This document shows, piece by piece, positions 55,007-62,165 of a stretch of 64,000 nt of DNA. Under the pieces are notes generated by a model. The model ran no database searches, was not told where the DNA came from, and worked only from the letters and a program-made list of their open reading frames with translations. Position 1 is the first letter of the stretch. Each line of letters begins with the position of its first letter. The position numbers and the translations under genes were made by a program. The stretch is from Hafnia paralvei ATCC 29927 (GTDB taxonomy: Bacteria; Pseudomonadota; Gammaproteobacteria; Enterobacterales; Enterobacteriaceae): positions 43,706-107,705 of the forward strand of contig NZ_LXET01000009.1 of the NCBI RefSeq assembly GCF_001655005.1, read 5' to 3'.

Positions 55007-56725
55007 TTATCGAGGTTTTTCACAGCCGGTTGAAACGGTTAATTCGTGAATATCGCTTTCGTTGGATTGCGCTGGAGGCGCGAACCATGCGGATTTGAAG
55101 TCGAACCAGCCGAGAGTGTTCATCCGGACACCGCGCATGCTGTGCTGTCCGTGGAGTTTGAGCCAGTGATGAAATAGGGGGTGAAGCTGATGCTCTTGCA
55201 CTAGACGTTGGCTCCATTCCGCCATCGGCAGAGCGTTGTTACGCCACTGGCTGGCATCTTGCTGCAAATCGCCACTCAGGCAGTGCTGTAGCAGAGGCAA
55301 TTCATACATCATCGAAAAAATCGAGAATTCGAGCGGCATGTAAAAGTTAGCACTACCCAGCCACAGATCGCTTTTTGCATCGCCTTCATACCAGCGGCTA
55401 TAGCTGATTTCTTGCATCGTGAGCTCAACGCCATAGTCTGCAAGCAGCGGTTTTAGTGCCAAGAATATTGCGTGAAACTCCGAGTGCTTGGTGTACACCG
55501 TCAGCGTGAGATGGGTCAGATGGGCCGGTTTCTCGTTATCGCTAATCAGTAGGTTGTGGTGCCAGCGAGGCAAAATGCCATACGCAGGTGACCAGTAGCG
55601 TTGATGGATCTTGCTCGCTTTATTCAGCAACGCGATAGGGTTGATGACCTGACACAGCCATTCACGCACTGCGGGGTCGGAGGTGATTGCTGAGCGCTGA
55701 TCAAACAGCATGAAATAGCAGCCCTCTTCCAAACGACTTTCTAATTCATCTTTTCCGGTTTCATCGGACTGAAGCTGCACGCCTGCGTGCACCAGTTCTT
55801 CCGAAATTTCGGGTAACACCCAGATATTGACTTCATCGATTAGCGCGCGAAAACCAAAGTAGTCGTCATAGGCGCGGATTTTAAGCTGAGTCTGGGTATT
55901 ACGTACCACCTGATAGGGCCCAGTCCCGATGGGGGAGCGAGTAAAATTGGGCAGTGATTTCCATTCGCGCGGTAGAATCATGGCGTTGACGCTGCCGAGT
56001 AGCCACGGTAGCCACTCATCTGGCGTGCTTATTTGAATATCAATAACGTACGGATTTGGGGAGGTAATGCTTTTCAGATGTGAAAACAGCGGTTGTTCCC
56101 GCAGCCGTTCAAGAGAGTGGATCACATCGGCCATTTCTAGCTCGCGTCCGTTATGAAAACGAATAGCGGGGCGTAGGTAAAAGCGCCAATGCAGCGGCGT
56201 TAAAGCCTGCCAGTGATGCGCTAGATCGGGCTCGAGTTCCCCGTTTTCCTCATTTAGCTGAGTGAGGCCGCTAAATATCTGTCGGGCCAAATGGGTTTCG
56301 GAGCGACGCATTGGCGTTCCTGGAAGCAAATTAAACAGCGGGCGATAGTAAAGAATACGCAGGATATGCTTACCCTGACGGAAGCTGCGTCCTAGCTGAG
56401 AGAGCAGCATTTGGCGCACTGAGCTGCGGTCGCCAACCAGTTGCACTAACTGCTCGATATGATCTTGGTCTAGCAGCTCTTCGGCGCGTAACTGCTGTAC
56501 CTGAAGGCCAGTTGATTGGAAAGTGAGTGTGGAGCGTTTACCACGTCCAGACTCGGCCTGCCAATGTAACCATCCTTGTTGCTGCATAGCGTTGAGTAAG
56601 GTTCGCACATGACGACGCGAGCAACTGAGCGTTTCTGCCAGATCGGCTAGCGTGGTTTCCGCTGATTTGCCTTGAAAACTTTGCCATAAGCGGATGAATT
56701 GATGTTGTAAACGCGACGTCGCCAT
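55007..56725 (-). CDS. sgrR: Sugar-phosphate stress transcriptional activator SgrR
   Basis: 572 aa, collinear with E. coli SgrR (…RLQ.QFIRLWQ…; C-terminal SBP-like domain). Divergent from sgrS. Confidence 0.9.
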
Positions 56726-56784
56726 AAAAGAGGAACCTTTTTAGGTAAAGCTATCAATTTTTCTTTCCCTATATTACGCAGATA

Positions 56785-56905
56785 ATTTCAGCAGATGAAA
56801 GAGAAAGAGGTGAGTAATCATTTGTCTCTCCGACATCAAAGAGTGTTTCTGAGTAATGGTGCTTTTCACCGACCAGCAGGTCTGCCTGCTGGTTTTTTTC
56901 TGTTA
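56785..56905 (+). ncRNA. sgrS: SgrS small RNA (short form; no convincing SgrT ORF)
   Basis: The 3' region AAAGAGTGTTTCTGAGTAATGGTGCTTTTCACCGACCAGCAGGTCTGCCTGCTGGTTTTTTT matches the SgrS seed, terminator and poly-U. The 5' end is approximate. Confidence 0.65.
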
Positions 56906-56950
56906 TCGTACTGCCAGCCGTATTTGATAATGCCAGCTTAGGAAATCAGG

Positions 56951-58132
56951 ATGACCTCTTTGTTGACTGCTCGCCGCCGAATTAATCCCATCTATGCCGC
57001 GTTTTTGATTGTTGCATTCTTAACCGGAATTGCGGGAGCGCTTCAGGCTCCTACGCTAAGTTTATTTTTAACGACTGAAGTGAAGGTGCGTCCCCTTTGG
57101 GTTGGCCTCTTTTATACGGTGAATGCGATTGTCGGGATTGCGGTGAGTTTCTTGCTAGCGAAGCGTTCCGATCGTCAGGGCGATCGTCGCAAACTGATCA
57201 TGTTTTGTTGCGCAATGGCGGTGGGAAACTGCCTGTTGTTTGCGTTTTGTCGCAGTTATTTGTTGCTGATCTCCGCAGGCGTTTTCTTGGCAGCGCTGGC
57301 GAATACGGGAATGCCGCAGATTTTTGCCTTAGCGCGTGAATATGCCGACCGTTCAGCCAGCGAAGTTGTGATGTTTAGTTCGGTGATGCGAGCACAGCTC
57401 TCTTTGGCATGGGTGATTGGGCCGCCGCTTTCATTCATGCTGGCGCTGAATTACGGCTTCACTTTTATGTATTTGATTGCTGCTGCCGTGTTTATTCTTG
57501 CGATTGTGCTGGTGGCCTTTATGTTGCCATCAATGCCCCGCACAGAAACCACGGGTGAAGCCGTCGTTATTCCCACCAATGCGTTTGGCGACAAAAACGT
57601 GGTGATGCTGTTTATCTCCTCCATGCTGATGTGGACCTGCAATACCATGTATATCATTGATATGCCGCTGTATATCACGCAAGATCTTGATCTGCCAGAA
57701 AATTTGGCAGGGCTCTTGATGGGGACTGCTGCAGGTTTAGAGATTCCCGCGATGATTCTAGCGGGTTACTACGTTAAACGTTTTGGCAAACGTAACATGA
57801 TGCTGTTTGCCGTTGCCGCTGGGGTCTTATTTTATGCCGGTTTGGTGTTGTTTAAATTCAAATTGGCATTGATGGTGTTGCAGTTGTTTAACGCGGTGTT
57901 CATCGGAATTATTGCCGGTATCGGCATGCTCTATTTTCAAGATTTAATGCCGGGTCGAGCGGGCAGTGCGACGACGCTATTCACTAACAGTATTTCGACC
58001 GGTGTGATTATGGCAGGGGTATTACAAGGCGCGCTGGCTGAAACATTAGGCCACTACGCGGTATATTGGCTAGCGACAGCGCTGGCGATAGTGGCCTTGA
58101 TTTTGTGCTTGCGAGTGCGAGATGTGCCTTAG
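56951..58132 (+). CDS. setA: MFS sugar efflux transporter (SetA/SotB family)
   Basis: 393 aa, 12 TM. Conserved position after sgrS. Confidence 0.85.
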   Translation: MTSLLTARRRINPIYAAFLIVAFLTGIAGALQAPTLSLFLTTEVKVRPLWVGLFYTVNAIVGIAVSFLLAKRSDRQGDRRKLIMFCCAMAVGNCLLFAFCRSYLLLISAGVFLAALANTGMPQIFALAREYADRSASEVVMFSSVMRAQLSLAWVIGPPLSFMLALNYGFTFMYLIAAAVFILAIVLVAFMLPSMPRTETTGEAVVIPTNAFGDKNVVMLFISSMLMWTCNTMYIIDMPLYITQDLDLPENLAGLLMGTAAGLEIPAMILAGYYVKRFGKRNMMLFAVAAGVLFYAGLVLFKFKLALMVLQLFNAVFIGIIAGIGMLYFQDLMPGRAGSATTLFTNSISTGVIMAGVLQGALAETLGHYAVYWLATALAIVALILCLRVRDVP

Positions 58133-58137
58133 GTAAT

Positions 58138-59715
58138 TTATTCTCCTTTGATGATCTCCCAACTTAGCCCAAAACGCGCCAGATATTTACGTAGACGGTC
58201 GGCGTCATTGGGCTGTTTTTTCAGTTGGCGTGATACGGAGAATAGCTTACGTCCTGCCTCGGATAAGCTGTCTGACGAGCGGCAGACGCTGATCACGCTG
58301 GCTAATTGGCTGCGATCGAACAGATCTAACTCGGGAAGATCGGGTAAAATTTCTGGCTGATCTTTTTGCCAGTTTTGTTGTAGCCGAGCGATTTCTTCTT
58401 GTACCAGTTCGTCATCAATACGGCCTGTATCCGCAAGTGTTGCCATACGGGTGACCGAAGCCGCTAGTTCACGGAAGTTTCCTCGCCATTCAGCCTGCTC
58501 GGAACAGGCAAATTGCAGATAGCGTTGACGTGCTTCTTTATTGAAACGCACCTGTGCTTGCTGTTCTTGGCTATAGCGGTTGAGTTCAAAATCCAGATTC
58601 GGCTCTATATCTTCTCGCCGCTGCGCCAAGCTGGGGAGAGGAAAAGTCCACATATTGATGCGCGCATATAAATCCTCGCGAAAACGTCCTTGCTTGACCC
58701 ATTGCCGCATATCGCGATGGGTGCCTGCAATGAGTTGAAAATCGCTGGAAACCTCTTTATCTGAGCCAAAAGGTAAAAACCTTTTTTCTTCGATTACTTT
58801 GAGCAGCATGGCCTGTTCATCGAGTCCTAACTCTCCGATCTCGTCCAAAAACAGCACGCCGCCGTCGGCTTCTCGCAGCAGGCCGCTACGCGCCTGTAGC
58901 GCACCGGTAAATGCCCCTTTGATGTGACCAAACAAGGTTGACATCGCGTTGTCCCCGCGTAGCGTCGCACAGTTTACGGCCACAAATCGCCCGCTAACTT
59001 TATGCCGTGATTGTCTCAACTGGTAAATACGCTGTGCCAAAAATGACTTACCCGCCCCGGTGGGGCCAGTCAGCAGAATAGGTGCCGTCGAACGTAAGGC
59101 AACGCGTTCAATCTGATCAATCAGCGTATTGAAGGTGGCATTACGAGTGGCAATCCCCGATTTCAAAAATGAAATTGAAGCCTGCTGTTCACGCTGGAAG
59201 CGACGAGTTAATTTGCTATAGCGACTAAGGTCAAGATCGATAATGGAGTAAACACCGGCGGGAGTGGCCTCAGTTTTCTCTTGGCTTTTAGGCGCTGGCG
59301 AGGTTTGTAGCAGGCTGGCTGGGAAATAGCGGGCTTCAGCGAGCAGGAACCAGCAAATTTGTACCACATGGGTGCCGGTGGTGATGTGGATTAAATACTC
59401 TTCGTTATCGGTATCGAAAGGGTAATGGGTGGCAAAGTCGAGAAATGCAGTATAAACCTCTTCAAAATCCCACGGGTCGTGCAGATTAACTTGATGCAGG
59501 CAAACCTGAGTGCTGCCGAGCTGGGCAATATCATCGCTTACCTGCTGCGCCATGCCGAGATCTCTTGGCTGATACAGAAGTTCGAGCCGGTCAATGGGCA
59601 AATCAGGCTGTTGGCATAGTCCTACCGTCGGTCGCCATTTATTCCAACGATTTGCTCGTTTACCGCGCTTATCCAGAACAGTGCCCAGCACACCAATAAC
59701 GACTCTGCGCTTCAT
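58138..59715 (-). CDS. rtcR: Sigma-54-dependent transcriptional activator RtcR (N-terminal CARF domain, AAA+ sigma-54 activator domain, C-terminal HTH)
   Basis: 525 aa. N-terminus MKRRVVIGVLGTVLD…WNKWRPTV…YLIHITTGTHVVQICWFLLAEARYFPA resembles E. coli RtcR. Central GAFTGA-containing AAA+ domain (…GHIKGAFTGA…). Confidence 0.85.
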   Translation of the reverse strand: MKRRVVIGVLGTVLDKRGKRANRWNKWRPTVGLCQQPDLPIDRLELLYQPRDLGMAQQVSDDIAQLGSTQVCLHQVNLHDPWDFEEVYTAFLDFATHYPFDTDNEEYLIHITTGTHVVQICWFLLAEARYFPASLLQTSPAPKSQEKTEATPAGVYSIIDLDLSRYSKLTRRFQREQQASISFLKSGIATRNATFNTLIDQIERVALRSTAPILLTGPTGAGKSFLAQRIYQLRQSRHKVSGRFVAVNCATLRGDNAMSTLFGHIKGAFTGALQARSGLLREADGGVLFLDEIGELGLDEQAMLLKVIEEKRFLPFGSDKEVSSDFQLIAGTHRDMRQWVKQGRFREDLYARINMWTFPLPSLAQRREDIEPNLDFELNRYSQEQQAQVRFNKEARQRYLQFACSEQAEWRGNFRELAASVTRMATLADTGRIDDELVQEEIARLQQNWQKDQPEILPDLPELDLFDRSQLASVISVCRSSDSLSEAGRKLFSVSRQLKKQPNDADRLRKYLARFGLSWEIIKGE

Positions 59716-59851
59716 TGTTTATCCTAAATTATAAATGACGATATTTTAAGATAACTTTACACGCATTTGCTTCAAGGCGATATCGCGAGCGATAAAAATA
59801 AATGTCTTATTTTTCATGTGATTAATTTTTTATTTTGCTGTTTTTAAAAAA

Positions 59852-59867
59852 TGGCACGCTTTTGGCA
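59852..59867 (+). promoter_or_regulatory. Sigma-54 (-24/-12) promoter divergent from rtcR
   Basis: TGGCACGcttTTGGCA vs consensus TGGCACG-N4-TTGCW. GG and GC are at the correct 10-bp spacing, with one mismatch. Predicted TSS ~59878. Confidence 0.6.
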
Positions 59868-59959
59868 ATATTTATAACGCCACTTGCTGGGGTCGTAGGG
59901 ATTCTAAACTCCCACCGGCACATTAAGAACGCCAAGTTGCGTTATCTGCGATGTGTTCT

Positions 59960-60010
59960 GCCAGCGGTAGATGGCCTGGTTAACCTGGGTTCGAATCCCA
60001 GAACATCAAA
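59960..60010 (+). ncRNA. tRNA-like module (T-arm mimic) within the ~350-nt sigma-54-driven leader
   Basis: CTGGG-TTCGAAT-CCCAG (59985–60001) is a perfect 5-bp T-stem with a 7-nt TΨC-type loop, followed by AACATCA with no CCA. It is not a canonical tRNA, since acceptor pairing is imperfect. Confidence 0.5.
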
Positions 60011-60225
60011 TATTCCTGATGGGTAGGAAATTTAGAAATTTATTGTAGTGCCAGCCCGTGTAGCCAAGCCGTTAATGGTTACCGTCGTAGAAAACCAGCT
60101 AACACGCTGGGCAGGTGGCAAGGTCTCGTTAGCGCGAGTATCGGCTAGAGAGTTCTCCCCACCCGCTTCGCGTCACTGCCCGTTTTCTAAGACAGCGGGC
60201 TAATTAATCACAAGGAAGAAAAAAT

Positions 60226-61362
60226 ATGCGTAAGAACATCATTATACAAAAAGGGCAGATCGGTTTACTGACGAAGAAAGGCGATTATCAGAAAGTACTC
60301 GAAGCGGGAGAATATCGCTTTTTTGACTGGACTAATCAGTTGGCAGTGACGGTGGTTAATCTTAGCGATAGCAGAGTGGAACCCGCACTGGCCGAACATT
60401 TACGCAGCTACCAGCCTGAGTGGGTTGAACGCTATTGCACCGCGGTGGATTTATCTGAACAAGAGATCGGCCTGCGCTATGAAAATGACATTTTACAGGA
60501 AATATTGCCACCGGGGACGCGTCGTCTTTATTGGTTGAATGGCAATCAGCAACGCATCGAACGAATTGAGGCTAATAATGTAGAAGTACCGTCAGAGATT
60601 GTGGCTGCGCTGCATCAACCGAAATTACGCAACCGTACGATTAAAGGTGGAGAAGGGGTGTTATTGGTGCAGGTGCCAGCGTGGCATGTCGGCATATTAA
60701 AAATTGATGGTGCAACACAGGCGTTGTTAAGCCCTGGTATTAGTGGATATTGGCGCTTCAACCATGCGGTGGAAGCCGAAATTGTTGATACCCGTTTGCA
60801 GGTGTTAGAAGTCAGCGGGCAAGAGATATTGACCCGTGACAAAGTGAATCTTCGGTTGAACTTAGCCGCTAACTGGCGCTACAGCGATGTGCTGCAATCA
60901 TTTGCTTTGGTTGCTAAACCGCTGGAGCACATTTATCGCGAGTTGCAGTTCGCGCTGCGTGAGGCTGTTGGTACACGCACATTAGACGAGTTGCTGGAGA
61001 ATAAGCAGATTATAGACGACATCGTGAGTGAGCAGGTGTCGCGGAAACTGGTTGGCTATGGCATTGAGGTCGTATCGCTAGGTGTTAAAGACATTGTTTT
61101 ACCGGGTGATATGAAAACCATTTTGTCGCGTGTGGTTGAAGCGGAAAAATTGGCTCAGGCTAATGTGATCCGCCGTCGTGAAGAAACCTCTGCGACGCGA
61201 TCGTTATTAAATACGGCGAAAGTCATGGAAAACAACCCCGTGGCGCTGCGCCTAAAAGAGTTAGAAACGTTGGAAAGAGTCGCAGAGCGTATCGATAAAA
61301 TATCCGTGTTTGGTGGATTAGATCAGGTGCTAAACGGGCTTATACAAATTAAAGGGATGTAA
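60226..61362 (+). CDS. SPFH/Band-7 (stomatin/slipin-like) domain protein with a ~190-aa N-terminal extension and no predicted TM segment
   Basis: The C-terminal half aligns with the stomatin core (…LDELLENKQIIDDIVSEQVSRKLVGYGIEVVSLGVKDIVLPGDMKTILSRVVEAEKLAQANVI…ALRLKELETLERVAE…). RBS AAGGAAG is 7 nt upstream. Confidence 0.75.
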   Translation: MRKNIIIQKGQIGLLTKKGDYQKVLEAGEYRFFDWTNQLAVTVVNLSDSRVEPALAEHLRSYQPEWVERYCTAVDLSEQEIGLRYENDILQEILPPGTRRLYWLNGNQQRIERIEANNVEVPSEIVAALHQPKLRNRTIKGGEGVLLVQVPAWHVGILKIDGATQALLSPGISGYWRFNHAVEAEIVDTRLQVLEVSGQEILTRDKVNLRLNLAANWRYSDVLQSFALVAKPLEHIYRELQFALREAVGTRTLDELLENKQIIDDIVSEQVSRKLVGYGIEVVSLGVKDIVLPGDMKTILSRVVEAEKLAQANVIRRREETSATRSLLNTAKVMENNPVALRLKELETLERVAERIDKISVFGGLDQVLNGLIQIKGM

Positions 61363-62165
61363 TGTTACCTATGGAACTCAGAACTTCATGCGGCGTAAGC
61401 GCCGCAATGCGGATGCGTATTCAACAGACGCTGTGTGCGTTGGAAGAGGAATATCAGATACGCATATTGTACGCCTGTGAATCAGGCAGCCGAGGCTGGG
61501 GATTTGCTTCAACGGACAGTGATTATGATGTGCGCTTTATTTACGTTCATCGACCAGAATGGTATCTGCGAGTTGAGCCCGGTCGTGATGTGATAGAAAT
61601 GCCAATTGACGATGAGTTAGACGTGTGTGGCTGGGAGCTACGTAAAACGTTGGGGTTGATAAAACGCTCGAACCCAACGTTGATGGAATGGCTGGATTCC
61701 CCGATTGTTTATCGCAATGAGGAAAGGGCGACCGCTGCATTAAGAGCATTGTTGCCCGATTACTTCTCTGGCTTACGTGGGCGTTATCACTATTTGTCGA
61801 TGGCGCGGAAAAACTTTCGTGGGTATCTGCAAGGTGAAGAAGTTCGCTTGAAAAAATACTTCTACGTGTTGCGGCCATTGCTGGCGGTGCGTTGGATTGA
61901 AGCAGGTAAAGGTGTTCCGCCTATGCGTTTCGATCAATTAGTGGCTGGCACTGTTGATGACGCTGATTTATTGGATGAAATAGCGCAATTATTGTATGCA
62001 AAATGTGAAGCCAGCGAAGCTAAGTATGGGCCTCGGATGAAGAAGATCCATGAGTTCATTCAATATGAGCTGGATGACAATCTTTCTCGTTGTGAAATGG
62101 TAGACAATGTTGCATGTAGTGATGATGTTTTGAACCGATTGCTGTTTCAGGAGGTTAATTGTTAA
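61362..62165 (+). CDS. Pol-beta-superfamily nucleotidyltransferase (minimal NTase fold, ~267 aa)
   Basis: GS…D.D motif ACESGSRGWGFASTDSDYDVRFIY (hG[GS]x9-13Dh[DE]h). Start overlaps the upstream stop (TAATG). The second Met at 61371 is an alternative start. Confidence 0.65.
   Translation: MLPMELRTSCGVSAAMRMRIQQTLCALEEEYQIRILYACESGSRGWGFASTDSDYDVRFIYVHRPEWYLRVEPGRDVIEMPIDDELDVCGWELRKTLGLIKRSNPTLMEWLDSPIVYRNEERATAALRALLPDYFSGLRGRYHYLSMARKNFRGYLQGEEVRLKKYFYVLRPLLAVRWIEAGKGVPPMRFDQLVAGTVDDADLLDEIAQLLYAKCEASEAKYGPRMKKIHEFIQYELDDNLSRCEMVDNVACSDDVLNRLLFQEVNC

Follow-up and report, generated by a model that had tools for sequence, protein, structure and literature searches.

A putative structured, tRNA-related leader RNA upstream of the Band-7 gene in an RtcR-linked locus of Hafnia paralvei

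The window analysed here, a stretch of 64 kb from Hafnia paralvei, carries rtcR on the minus strand (58138-59715), which encodes a divergent sigma-54 enhancer-binding activator with an N-terminal RtcR/CARF domain. Its product was matched by the Pfam models RtcR (1.5e-80) and Sigma54_activat (2.2e-51) and is an NCBIfam equivalog (NF038308, 837 bits for a cut-off of 650). On the plus strand, the first cistron (60226-61362, ATG at 60226) encodes a Band-7/SPFH protein (slipin) of 378 amino acids (Pfam Band_7, 3e-29), 100% identical to "slipin family protein [Hafnia sp.]". The second cistron (61362-62165, plus strand), whose start overlaps the Band-7 stop, encodes RlaP (PF10127), a Pol-beta-type nucleotidyltransferase (Pfam RlaP, 7.7e-96). 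The first-pass annotation had expected a nucleotidyltransferase as the downstream cistron; the enzyme is indeed in the operon, but in second place, behind Band-7. Members of the RlaP family add 1-2 NMP to RNA 3'-OH ends in vitro (PMC12776372). The six genes scanned around the leader encode SgrR, an MFS transporter, RtcR, Band-7, RlaP and a DASS transporter. No RtcB was detected in the 64-kb window (best tblastn E 0.47). The rtcR-band7-rlaP architecture recurs in 80 related loci, 63 of which contain rtcB; in L001, L019 and L025, the loci examined, this gene separates band7 from rlaP.

A sigma-54-type promoter, TGGCACGCTTTTGGCA, lies on the plus strand at 59852-59867 (GG-N10-GC, with the -24 GG at 59853-54 and the -12 GC at 59865-66) and adjoins the divergent rtcR, as expected for an RtcR/sigma-54-dependent transcript. 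In 66 of 81 loci, the same motif occurs and keeps a constant distance to the 5' domain of the leader. Transcription probably starts at about 59877-59879, and the leader (59878-60225) would be transcribed from this promoter under RtcR. The element was thus correctly placed, at first pass, between the promoter and the first cistron. TTATCC...GATAA-type repeats beside the rtcR start (59716-59755) are conserved as a block when 18 enterobacterial intergenic regions are aligned; they are candidate RtcR upstream activating sites. No sigma-70-like site was present in 59600-60400. On the plus strand, neither sigma-70 promoters nor terminators were found inside the leader, and no intrinsic terminator was found between the sigma-54 promoter and the Band-7 start. 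The leader ends with the Shine-Dalgarno sequence AAGGAAG (60212-18), which together with the Band-7 ATG spans 60212-60228 on the plus strand.

Folding indicated that the leader is structured over ~325 nt, with a z-score of -3.8 for the whole-leader MFE. In RNAalifold analysis of 17 enterics, with which the MFE fold of the window sequence agrees, the 5' domain (59879-59975, plus strand) forms a three-way junction. Its basal helix P1 pairs 59879-59890 with 59961-59975 (core GCUGG 59886-90/CCAGC 59961-65, checked manually) and encloses hairpin A (59895-59915) and hairpin B (59916-59960), the latter closed by the conserved CCGGCAC ... GUGUUCUG strands. The linker CUGGUUAAC (59976-59984, plus strand) leads to the T-arm mimic at 59985-60001. 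In the covariance-model (CM) alignment, it is the counterpart of the CCUGGU linker that runs from the acceptor 5' strand to the T-arm in the beta-proteobacterial "tRNA-like 1". After the post-T segment (60002-60021), an A/U-rich linker (60022-60052, plus strand) ends in GUAGUGCC; sequence comparison showed this to correspond to the conserved GCAGUACCC that other lineages have after their last tRNA-like module. The 3' domain (60053-60201, plus strand), also folded with RNAalifold and recovered with the same helices in the MFE of the window sequence, consists of an outer stem (60053-59 with 60195-201), a hairpin (60060-66 with 60076-82) and a long irregular helix (60088-60137 with 60141-60189), of which 60088-60122/60155-60189 is the conserved, covariation-supported part. 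Its conserved strands are GGCAA and UUCUCCCC.

Covariation was assessed for both parts. In the 5' domain and T-arm, pairing reached 92.7% and 25 of 30 pairs showed compensatory changes (0/500 shuffles; slid controls 34-47%), and in the 3' domain the values were 90% and 20 of 23 pairs (0/500 shuffles); these shuffle counts are not probabilities, given the relatedness of the enterics and alignments that had been fitted to the model. The covariance model R1, built from the enterics, found a single match in the window (59873-60030, 108 bits), and the model of the 3' domain, R2, matched at 60084-60192 (64.9 bits). R2 gave no matches at E<0.01 in beta-proteobacteria and Pseudomonas, with which the visible similarity of the 3' region is limited to its first motifs. 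The long 3' helix was therefore treated as probably specific to a lineage comprising Enterobacterales, Gilliamella and Snodgrassella. Neither the 5' three-way junction nor the 3' helix domain is in Rfam. Altogether, folding, covariance and sequence comparison support the original proposal that the leader is a putative non-coding, structured and tRNA-related element, conserved with covariation.

The T-arm mimic CTGGG-TTCGAAT-CCCAG, described as perfect at first pass, stood up to inspection. It lies on the plus strand 133 nt downstream of the promoter, and its perfect 5-bp stem (CUGGG/CCCAG) and 7-nt loop (UUCGAAU) are those of a tRNA T-arm, for which the loop consensus is UUCRANY. The pattern GGTTCRANTCC has one match in 64 kb for 0.24 expected, and at least one match occurred in 23 of 100 shuffles. 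Therefore, the T-arm is not above chance from the window alone, and its significance comes from comparison across loci. Indeed, 79 of 81 loci from gamma- and beta-proteobacteria carry a T-arm with a paired stem in the interval 180-430 nt before the Band-7 start; its loop is almost invariant and its stem co-varies (CTGGG/CCCAG, TCGGG/CCCGA, TCAGG/CCTGA, GCAGG/CCTGC, AAGGG/CCCTT, GTAGG/CCTAC). In 17 enterics and 10 beta-proteobacteria, the loop is invariant save for one position and the stem co-varies. Homologous loci, which might have lacked the TTCGAAT stem-loop, thus keep it. Two T-arms ~70-79 nt apart were present in 49 of the 81 loci.

An acceptor-like 3' strand without CCA had been proposed to follow the T-arm. 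The position is right and there is no CCA: AACATCA (60002-60008) occupies the place of a 6-8 bp acceptor-like stem in relatives (e.g. TGCGAAG/CTTCGCA in Erwinia and TGGCGATG/CATCGCCA in Undibacterium). In beta-proteobacteria, this stem is formed by differing sequences at a constant spacing of 13-17 nt, and it is real in Erwinia too. In Hafnia, the pairing does not exceed that of shuffles, the best coaxial stem being 4-5 bp (GAUG/CAUC or GTGTT/AACAT; p about 0.23), and no acceptor stem is claimed. The post-T segment (60002-60021, plus strand) can form a hairpin of CAUCA (60004-08) with UGAUG (60017-21), and a hairpin directly 3' of the T-arm is also seen in other enterics; alternatively, CAUC (60004-07) can pair with GAUG (59970-73).

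The leader is not a tRNA gene. It has no cloverleaf, ARAGORN found 0 tRNA genes in the window, and RF00005 had no match at E<=10 in 59600-60400, where the whole Rfam scan at this threshold returned only two chance matches (DGCR5 and mir-34). The hairpin at 60060-82, which has the look of a class II D-arm, was considered as a D-arm relic and rejected: the homologous hairpin lies downstream of the complete tRNA-likes in beta-proteobacteria.

The origin of the T-arm became apparent in the relatives. In Pseudomonas and beta-proteobacteria, ARAGORN and the Rfam tRNA model detected one or two tRNA-like genes with aberrant anticodons, and relatives outside Enterobacterales pass the Rfam tRNA model with 31-51 bits (gathering score 29). 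By the same two methods, none of the 18 Enterobacterales, Hafnia included, has a complete tRNA-like gene. The order in Pseudomonas is 5' three-way junction, two complete tRNA-like genes, hairpin, 3' region and band7. In beta-proteobacteria, the first module is an acceptor and T-arm minihelix. Enterobacterales, Hafnia among them, have lost the second, complete tRNA and retain little more than the T-arm of the first module; the canonical element, with its invariant D-arm and its T-arm GCGGG/CCCGC, is missing in 18 of 18. R1 aligned the 5' domain and T-arm of the enterics to beta-proteobacterial leaders (E 1e-9 to 1e-6), with the enteric T-arm falling on the first one there, and the motifs CCGGYGC, CCUGGU and GCAGUACCC are common to enteric and other leaders. 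The 5' junction domain and the T-arm are kept in every lineage. A blastn search with the intergenic region against 5,426 E. coli genomes gave no match to the leader DNA, which agrees with the absence of Band-7 from the rtc loci of E. coli. Since loci without rtcR still keep the leader RNA and E. coli genomes lack it, the RNA goes with Band-7 rather than with RtcR.

RNAs of this type, named b7a-tRNA, were predicted beside Band-7 and RtcB by Burroughs and Aravind (Nucleic Acids Res 2016), as related in passages of a 2018 preprint in which they were still a prediction (Wang et al. 2018, 10.1101/312249); our literature search for b7a-tRNA returned only this preprint. As far as these passages describe them, they are like the Hafnia leader in several ways: in an RtcR-linked RNA-repair locus with RlaP, both directly precede a Band-7/SPFH gene on the same strand, both have the same T-arm, and covariance-model alignment showed the Hafnia leader to be homologous to the leaders carrying b7a-tRNA. 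By the same account, they differ in three respects. Hafnia has no cloverleaf, D-arm, anticodon arm or clear acceptor stem, and so does not resemble an authentic tRNA; its T-arm is that of the upstream "tRNA-like 1" and not of the canonical, highly conserved tRNA-like 2; and the linkage to RtcB is missing, as rtcB is absent from both the operon and the window. Thus, the Hafnia leader is a stripped-down relative of the tRNA-like RNAs that, according to this source, were predicted beside Band-7 genes in 2016.

The Band-7 protein has a predicted layout of N-terminal beta-repeat region, SPFH domain and long helices, and no SPFH match was found before residue ~150. A Foldseek search with its AF2 model (pLDDT 77) returned stomatin cages (E 6e-13) and major vault protein (MVP; E 1e-10 over 430-540 columns); behind the latter resemblance stand a model of medium confidence and multi-domain alignments whose rmsd is high (12-17 A). 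With modest confidence, the Band-7 protein may therefore be said to resemble stomatin cages and, over its full length, MVP. The locus would recall the vault ribonucleoprotein in its predicted beta-repeats, SPFH "shoulder" and long helices and in the small structured non-coding RNA alongside; however, the leader has no sequence homology to vault RNAs, and the likeness is one of predicted structure alone.

With moderate confidence, and as far as b7a-tRNAs are described in the 2018 preprint, we propose that 59878-60225 is the transcribed leader of band7-rlaP, a conserved, structured non-coding RNA and the reduced enterobacterial form of the b7a-tRNA array that goes with Band-7 genes in RtcR/RtcB RNA-repair loci. 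By inference, its most likely role would be that of an RNA partner for the Band-7 protein, which is vault/stomatin-like. Because every lineage keeps the 5' junction domain and the T-arm, these are proposed as the working core of a modular RNA with a build like that of Y RNA or vault RNA. A protein-binding module, made of the 5' junction and perhaps the 3' helix, would hold a vault/stomatin-like Band-7 oligomer, and the T-arm would present a mimic of the tRNA elbow or of a minihelix to tRNA-handling enzymes such as RlaP, RtcB where present, TruB/TrmA or RNase P. The analysis itself shows the presence, position, synteny and homology of the element, its covariation-supported folds and its lack of tRNA or YrlA identity; transcription from the sigma-54 promoter, RNA processing or stability, Band-7 binding and a recruiting T-arm are inferences. 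In Hafnia, tRNA mimicry may be minimal and the T-loop a purely structural module, because there is neither a D-arm partner for the T-loop nor a convincing acceptor stem.

RtcR-controlled RNA repair is widespread, and the enterobacterial loci amount to a natural minimisation experiment for a tRNA-like RNA. They show that such an RNA can do without the whole second tRNA-like gene, without a D-arm or an anticodon arm and even without RtcB, but not without the 5' junction domain and the T-loop. This offers precise, testable targets in the genetically tractable Hafnia, Klebsiella, Citrobacter and Proteus. The tRNA-like RNA is absent from Rfam. Moreover, the two covariation-supported motifs are candidate additions to RNA family databases. 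A bolder version, which we regard as unlikely, is that the conserved functional unit is not the tRNA look-alike at all but a modular RNA of ~145 nt (5' junction and T-arm), to which a lineage-specific 3' helix domain is added, and that it is the RNA subunit of a soluble, vault-like Band-7 cage; in Hafnia-type loci, the ribonucleoprotein would work with the end-extending RlaP and without a co-encoded ligase. If so, the RtcR response would have a ligase-independent branch that had gone unrecognised, and bacteria would have a counterpart of vault and Ro-Y ribonucleoproteins. Should Band-7 turn out to form a vault-like cage together with an RNA, this would connect bacterial RNA repair with the eukaryotic vault and Ro particles.

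It is also possible, if rather doubtful, that the leader acts purely in cis, as a folded 5' UTR that controls the stability, processing or translation of band7-rlaP after RtcR-dependent initiation, with no trans-acting RNA; RNase P, Z or E might for instance recognise it as a tRNA-like processing signal, or it could sense a small ligand or tRNA that is damaged or uncharged. The RNA is contiguous with the mRNA, with no plus-strand terminator between them, so that the sequence data are equally compatible with this explanation. It is also favoured by a 3' domain that stops only about 10 nt short of the Shine-Dalgarno sequence, by the conserved location of the RNA at the extreme 5' end of the operon, and by a tRNA-like part that in Hafnia is too reduced to look like a free tRNA mimic. 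However, other lineages hold complete tRNA-like genes at this place, which are expected to be excised by tRNA-processing enzymes. One of them is PA4581.1 of P. aeruginosa, a CCA-less "tRNA-arg4" between rtcR and PA4582 (PMC13637947); in qRT-PCR, it was abundant, at about half the level of canonical tRNA, regardless of rtc induction (PMC13637947). Nor was an alternative terminator/antiterminator pair visible. The window MFE pairs UUCCU (60013-17) with AGGAA (60213-17), but an anti-Shine-Dalgarno role of the post-T segment was rejected, as RNAduplex analysis of 17 enterics gave z-scores around 0 (-2.05 to +1.2, most from -1 to +1.2).

A role as sentinel or decoy appears improbable. Anticodon nucleases would cut the leader into 2',3'-cyclic-phosphate fragments that act back on the CARF domain of RtcR, or the leader would soak up the nuclease. 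In Salmonella, RtcR is activated by tRNA fragments or nicked tRNAs (PMC7790460, PMC10159003), and a role as competitive inhibitor has been suggested for YrlA in the literature, where YrlA is however described as uncleaved in Salmonella. The anticodon arm is absent in Hafnia and all other enterics. Where a b7a tRNA-like is complete, its "anticodon" loop has no constant size or sequence and in many cases is a UUCG or GNRA tetraloop. The idea raised at first pass of a cis-encoded ligand or decoy for RtcR is thus not borne out.

We considered it very improbable that the leader is a non-functional relic, either a decaying pseudogene derived from the b7a-tRNA array or what is left of the 3' part of a tRNA gene or of a phage attachment site. 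Such decay would fit the clear stepwise reduction from two tRNA-likes, through one with a minihelix, to the T-arm only, and the lack of an ARAGORN tRNA in the window. It would not explain a T-loop that stays near-invariant across 17 enterobacterial species although their Band-7 proteins share only 59-75% identity and the flanks diverge, nor the compensatory stem changes and the fixed operon position; moreover, no integrase or other mobile-element gene was found among the six neighbouring genes scanned. The tRNA remnant or attachment site that the first-pass annotation had kept in mind is therefore not what the Hafnia segment represents.

The analogy drawn with the Salmonella rsr-yrlBA-rtcBA operon was apt, in that both are RtcR/sigma-54 RNA-repair operons with a tRNA-mimicking non-coding RNA. 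YrlA, which works with Ro60 (Rsr) (PMC4201824; RF02553), also has the same modular logic of a protein-binding part and a tRNA-mimicking part with a canonical T-arm. In contrast, the Hafnia RNA lies at the 5' end of the transcript and not between rsr and rtcB, and its partner would be Band-7 and not Ro60. The suggested identity with YrlA or Y RNA had to be abandoned: RF02553 had no match at E<=10 (gathering score 69), no Ro60/TROVE gene was found among the six genes within 4 kb, and the Ro-binding motif GNCGAAN0-1G is absent, the sole CGAA in 59868-60225 being inside the T-loop and the nearest look-alike being GUCGUAGG at 59892-99. Of the YrlA order (V, T-arm, acceptor-like stem-loop, D-arm), the leader has the T-arm and then the hairpin at 60004-21, with no conserved D-arm after it. 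Relatives gave partial, sub-threshold RF02553 matches of 24 and 33 bits at the junction of first T-arm, stem-loop and D-arm, which are the dimeric-tRNA artefact against which Chen et al. 2014 (PMC4201824) warned. With family membership refuted, a YrlA-type Y RNA binding a Ro60 (Rsr) encoded elsewhere in the genome is hardly credible, despite the T-arm and RtcR operon context common to both.

Finally, the leader can be compared with the tRNA-like domain of tmRNA and with mascRNA. It differs from them in having no Rfam match in the window and neither a CCA end nor an aminoacylatable acceptor, and the mascRNA match in one relative (L022) was insignificant (13.7 bits, E 8.8). What they have in common is a partial mimicry, centred on the T-arm and acceptor minihelix, within a larger RNA.

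Upstream of the Band-7/SPFH gene lies a 510-bp gap that houses the tRNA-like element and extends to rtcR (58138-59715, minus strand; Pfam RtcR and Sigma54_activat; NCBIfam RtcR equivalog, 837 bits). The Band-7 gene (60226-61362, plus strand) is the first cistron of a two-gene operon with the RlaP nucleotidyltransferase gene (61362-62165, plus strand), and an unrelated DASS transporter gene comes next. A sigma-54-type promoter, TGGCACGCTTTTGGCA, was read in the sequence at 59852-59867. From its position, transcription would be expected to start at about 59877-59879, which coincides with the start chosen in the first-pass annotation (59878). Because this promoter lies upstream, and neither a sigma-70-like promoter nor a plus-strand terminator was found in 59600-60400, we infer that the 348-nt segment 59878-60225 is the 5' leader of the band7-rlaP transcript. 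Candidate RtcR binding sites, in the form of TTATCC...GATAA-type repeats, sit directly next to the rtcR start codon at 59716-59755, some 100-135 bp upstream of the promoter; every enterobacterial locus retains these repeats.

The claimed T-arm mimic, CTGGG-TTCGAAT-CCCAG, is present at 59985-60001 as described. Its loop motif occurs once in the window against 0.24 expected, which alone is not significant; therefore, weight must come from comparison with other genomes. ARAGORN detected no tRNA in the whole window, a Rfam scan at E<=10 returned neither tRNA nor YrlA in the segment, and the acceptor-like stem is weak in Hafnia (4-5 bp, ambiguous, p ~0.23).

Related loci from gamma- and beta-proteobacteria (80, one per species; L handles below) were fetched with a Band-7 protein profile. 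Gene order is kept: divergent rtcR, a long gap, band7, usually rtcB (63/80 loci), then rlaP. Of 81 loci, 79 have a T-arm (GGTTCRAnTCC loop and paired 5-bp stem) upstream of band7, and 49 of these 79 carry two, about 70-79 nt apart. Stem sequences vary by lineage with pairing retained. Pseudomonas and beta-proteobacterial loci have one or two tRNA-like genes upstream of band7 according to ARAGORN and the Rfam tRNA model, with odd or unassignable anticodons; in the 18 enterobacterial loci, Hafnia among them, tRNA detectors accepted nothing.

The leader carries two structured domains flanking the T-arm. A covariance model of the 5' domain and T-arm, trained on Enterobacterales (enteric) sequences only, had a single match in the window (59873-60030, 108 bits) and aligned the enteric T-arm with the first T-arm of beta-proteobacteria. 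The flanks agree with this alignment (CCUGGU before, ACAUCGC(C)ACC after). The 5' domain (59879-59975) is a three-way junction formed by P1 (59879-90 with 59961-75), hairpin A (59895-59915) and hairpin B (59916-59960). The 3' domain (60053-60201) comprises an outer stem, a hairpin and a long irregular helix; its helices were recovered by single-sequence MFE folding of the window. The alignments were model-fitted and the species related, so the following figures indicate consistency, not formal probability: 92.7% of cells paired and 25/30 pairs with compensatory changes in the 5' domain (n=27 sequences), and 90% and 20/23 in the 3' domain (n=20). In each case 0/500 shuffles reached these values, and 5' structures slid by 1-3 columns gave only 34-47%. 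The whole leader also folded better than shuffles (z = -3.8). No Rfam 15 family matches either domain, and the model of the long 3' helix matched only Enterobacterales, Gilliamella and Snodgrassella.

Read side by side, the leaders share a common plan: sigma-54 promoter, 5' domain, tRNA-like 1, tRNA-like 2, hairpin, GCAGUACCC motif with further helices, ribosome-binding site and band7. The upstream module, tRNA-like 1, is a full cloverleaf in Pseudomonas, an acceptor and T-arm minihelix in beta-proteobacteria (stem of 6-8 bp with differing sequences, 13-17 nt upstream of the T-stem in every case) and in enterics a T-arm, sometimes joined by a short acceptor stem. The downstream module, tRNA-like 2, is the canonical element, with an invariant D-arm and a GCGGG/CCCGC T-arm, and is missing in enterics. 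Since its variable 'anticodon' loop is in many species a UUCG or GNRA tetraloop, it is unable to decode. Canonical copies (L016-L079; e.g. L022:3134-3208, L036:3157-3228) have a 5-bp acceptor and no encoded CCA.

Comparison of lineages shows that the system can dispense with the anticodon arm, the D-arm, the entire second tRNA and even RtcB, and that the 5' junction and T-loop are always kept. This pattern speaks against a role in decoding or as a decoy for anticodon nucleases, and suggests that proteins recognise the 5' domain and the T-arm or minihelix. In the most economical model, a Band-7 oligomer would have all or a processed part of the leader as its RNA partner, and the T-arm would serve as a tRNA-like handle for tRNA-handling enzymes, an arrangement that would resemble Y-RNA and vault-RNA systems. 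Its chief competitor is a leader that acts only in cis, which the sequence analysis fits equally well. The earlier idea of a cis-encoded ligand or decoy found no support.

The proposal of a tRNA-mimicking RNA in the RtcR operon holds in spirit, but not its YrlA affiliation: RF02553 is in Rfam, yet nothing in the window matches it, and both the Ro-binding motif in the leader and a Ro60 gene among its neighbours are missing. Partial sub-threshold RF02553 matches in relatives (24 and 33 bits, spanning the T1/D2 junction) are a dimeric-tRNA artefact, as described by Chen et al. (PMC4201824). A tRNA-gene 3' remnant or att site was rejected: the stem-loop keeps a fixed position, an invariant loop and a co-varying stem across 17 enteric species with Band-7 proteins at 59-75% identity to that of the window. 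An anti-SD switch was not evident.

A band 7-associated tRNA-like class was already predicted in 2016 (Burroughs and Aravind, via Wang et al. 2018, 10.1101/312249). As far as that citing preprint conveys it, Hafnia and the other Enterobacterales carry a new variant of reduced form: it has no cloverleaf, in Hafnia the operon and the entire 64-kb window lack rtcB, and two covariation-supported domains outside Rfam flank the T-arm, for which we found no description in the literature, the 2016 work being represented by the preprint. The only expression data found concern the CCA-less 'tRNA-arg4' of P. aeruginosa, PA4581.1, which lies between rtcR and PA4582 and is detectable by qRT-PCR at about half the level of ordinary tRNAs (2026 paper, PMC13637947).

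The window's Band-7 protein matches 'slipin family protein [Hafnia sp.]' at 100% identity. Its N-terminal ~150 residues have no Pfam domain or PDB sequence match. In the AF2 model (pLDDT 77), beta-repeats at the N-terminus are followed by an SPFH domain and long helices; Foldseek matched the model to stomatin cages and, along its full extent, to major vault protein (430-540 columns). Homologues in Xenorhabdus and some relatives (proteins P0002-P0012) have ~520 aa versus 375-380 aa elsewhere, which implies an insertion or extension of ~145 residues.

In vitro, RlaP extends RNA 3'-OH ends by one or two nucleotides (PMC12776372), and the 3'-end sequences after the first T-arm are possibly linked to this end-adding enzyme. 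In beta-proteobacteria, an encoded CCA (GCCA, ACCA, CACCA) often follows the acceptor-like 3' strand of tRNA-like 1 (L022, L029, L035, L047, L060, L064); several enterics have ACCU there (L001, L002, L003, L006, L015) and Hafnia CAUC-AAAU.

The window's RtcR-controlled operon has no RNA ligase gene, and the band7-rlaP-only layout recurs in Brenneria, Lonsdalea, Klebsiella, Citrobacter, Superficieibacter and Mangrovibacter (L002, L003, L004, L007, L009, L010, L015). Five loci without upstream rtcR (L054, L063, L066, L071, L078) retain both tRNA-like elements and carry arrays of 3-9 ordinary tRNA genes on the band7 strand, ~1-2 kb upstream, which suggests a different, possibly constitutive, expression of the system. 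In an Acidovorax MAG, rnpB, the RNase P RNA gene, adjoins rtcR (L073:754-1105, minus strand, 205 bits), probably by coincidence. Elsewhere in the window, the gap (56725-56951) between sgrR (55007-56725, minus strand) and an MFS transporter gene (56951-58132), which we take to be the expected place of sgrS/sgrT, holds a 48-aa ORF (56795-56941).
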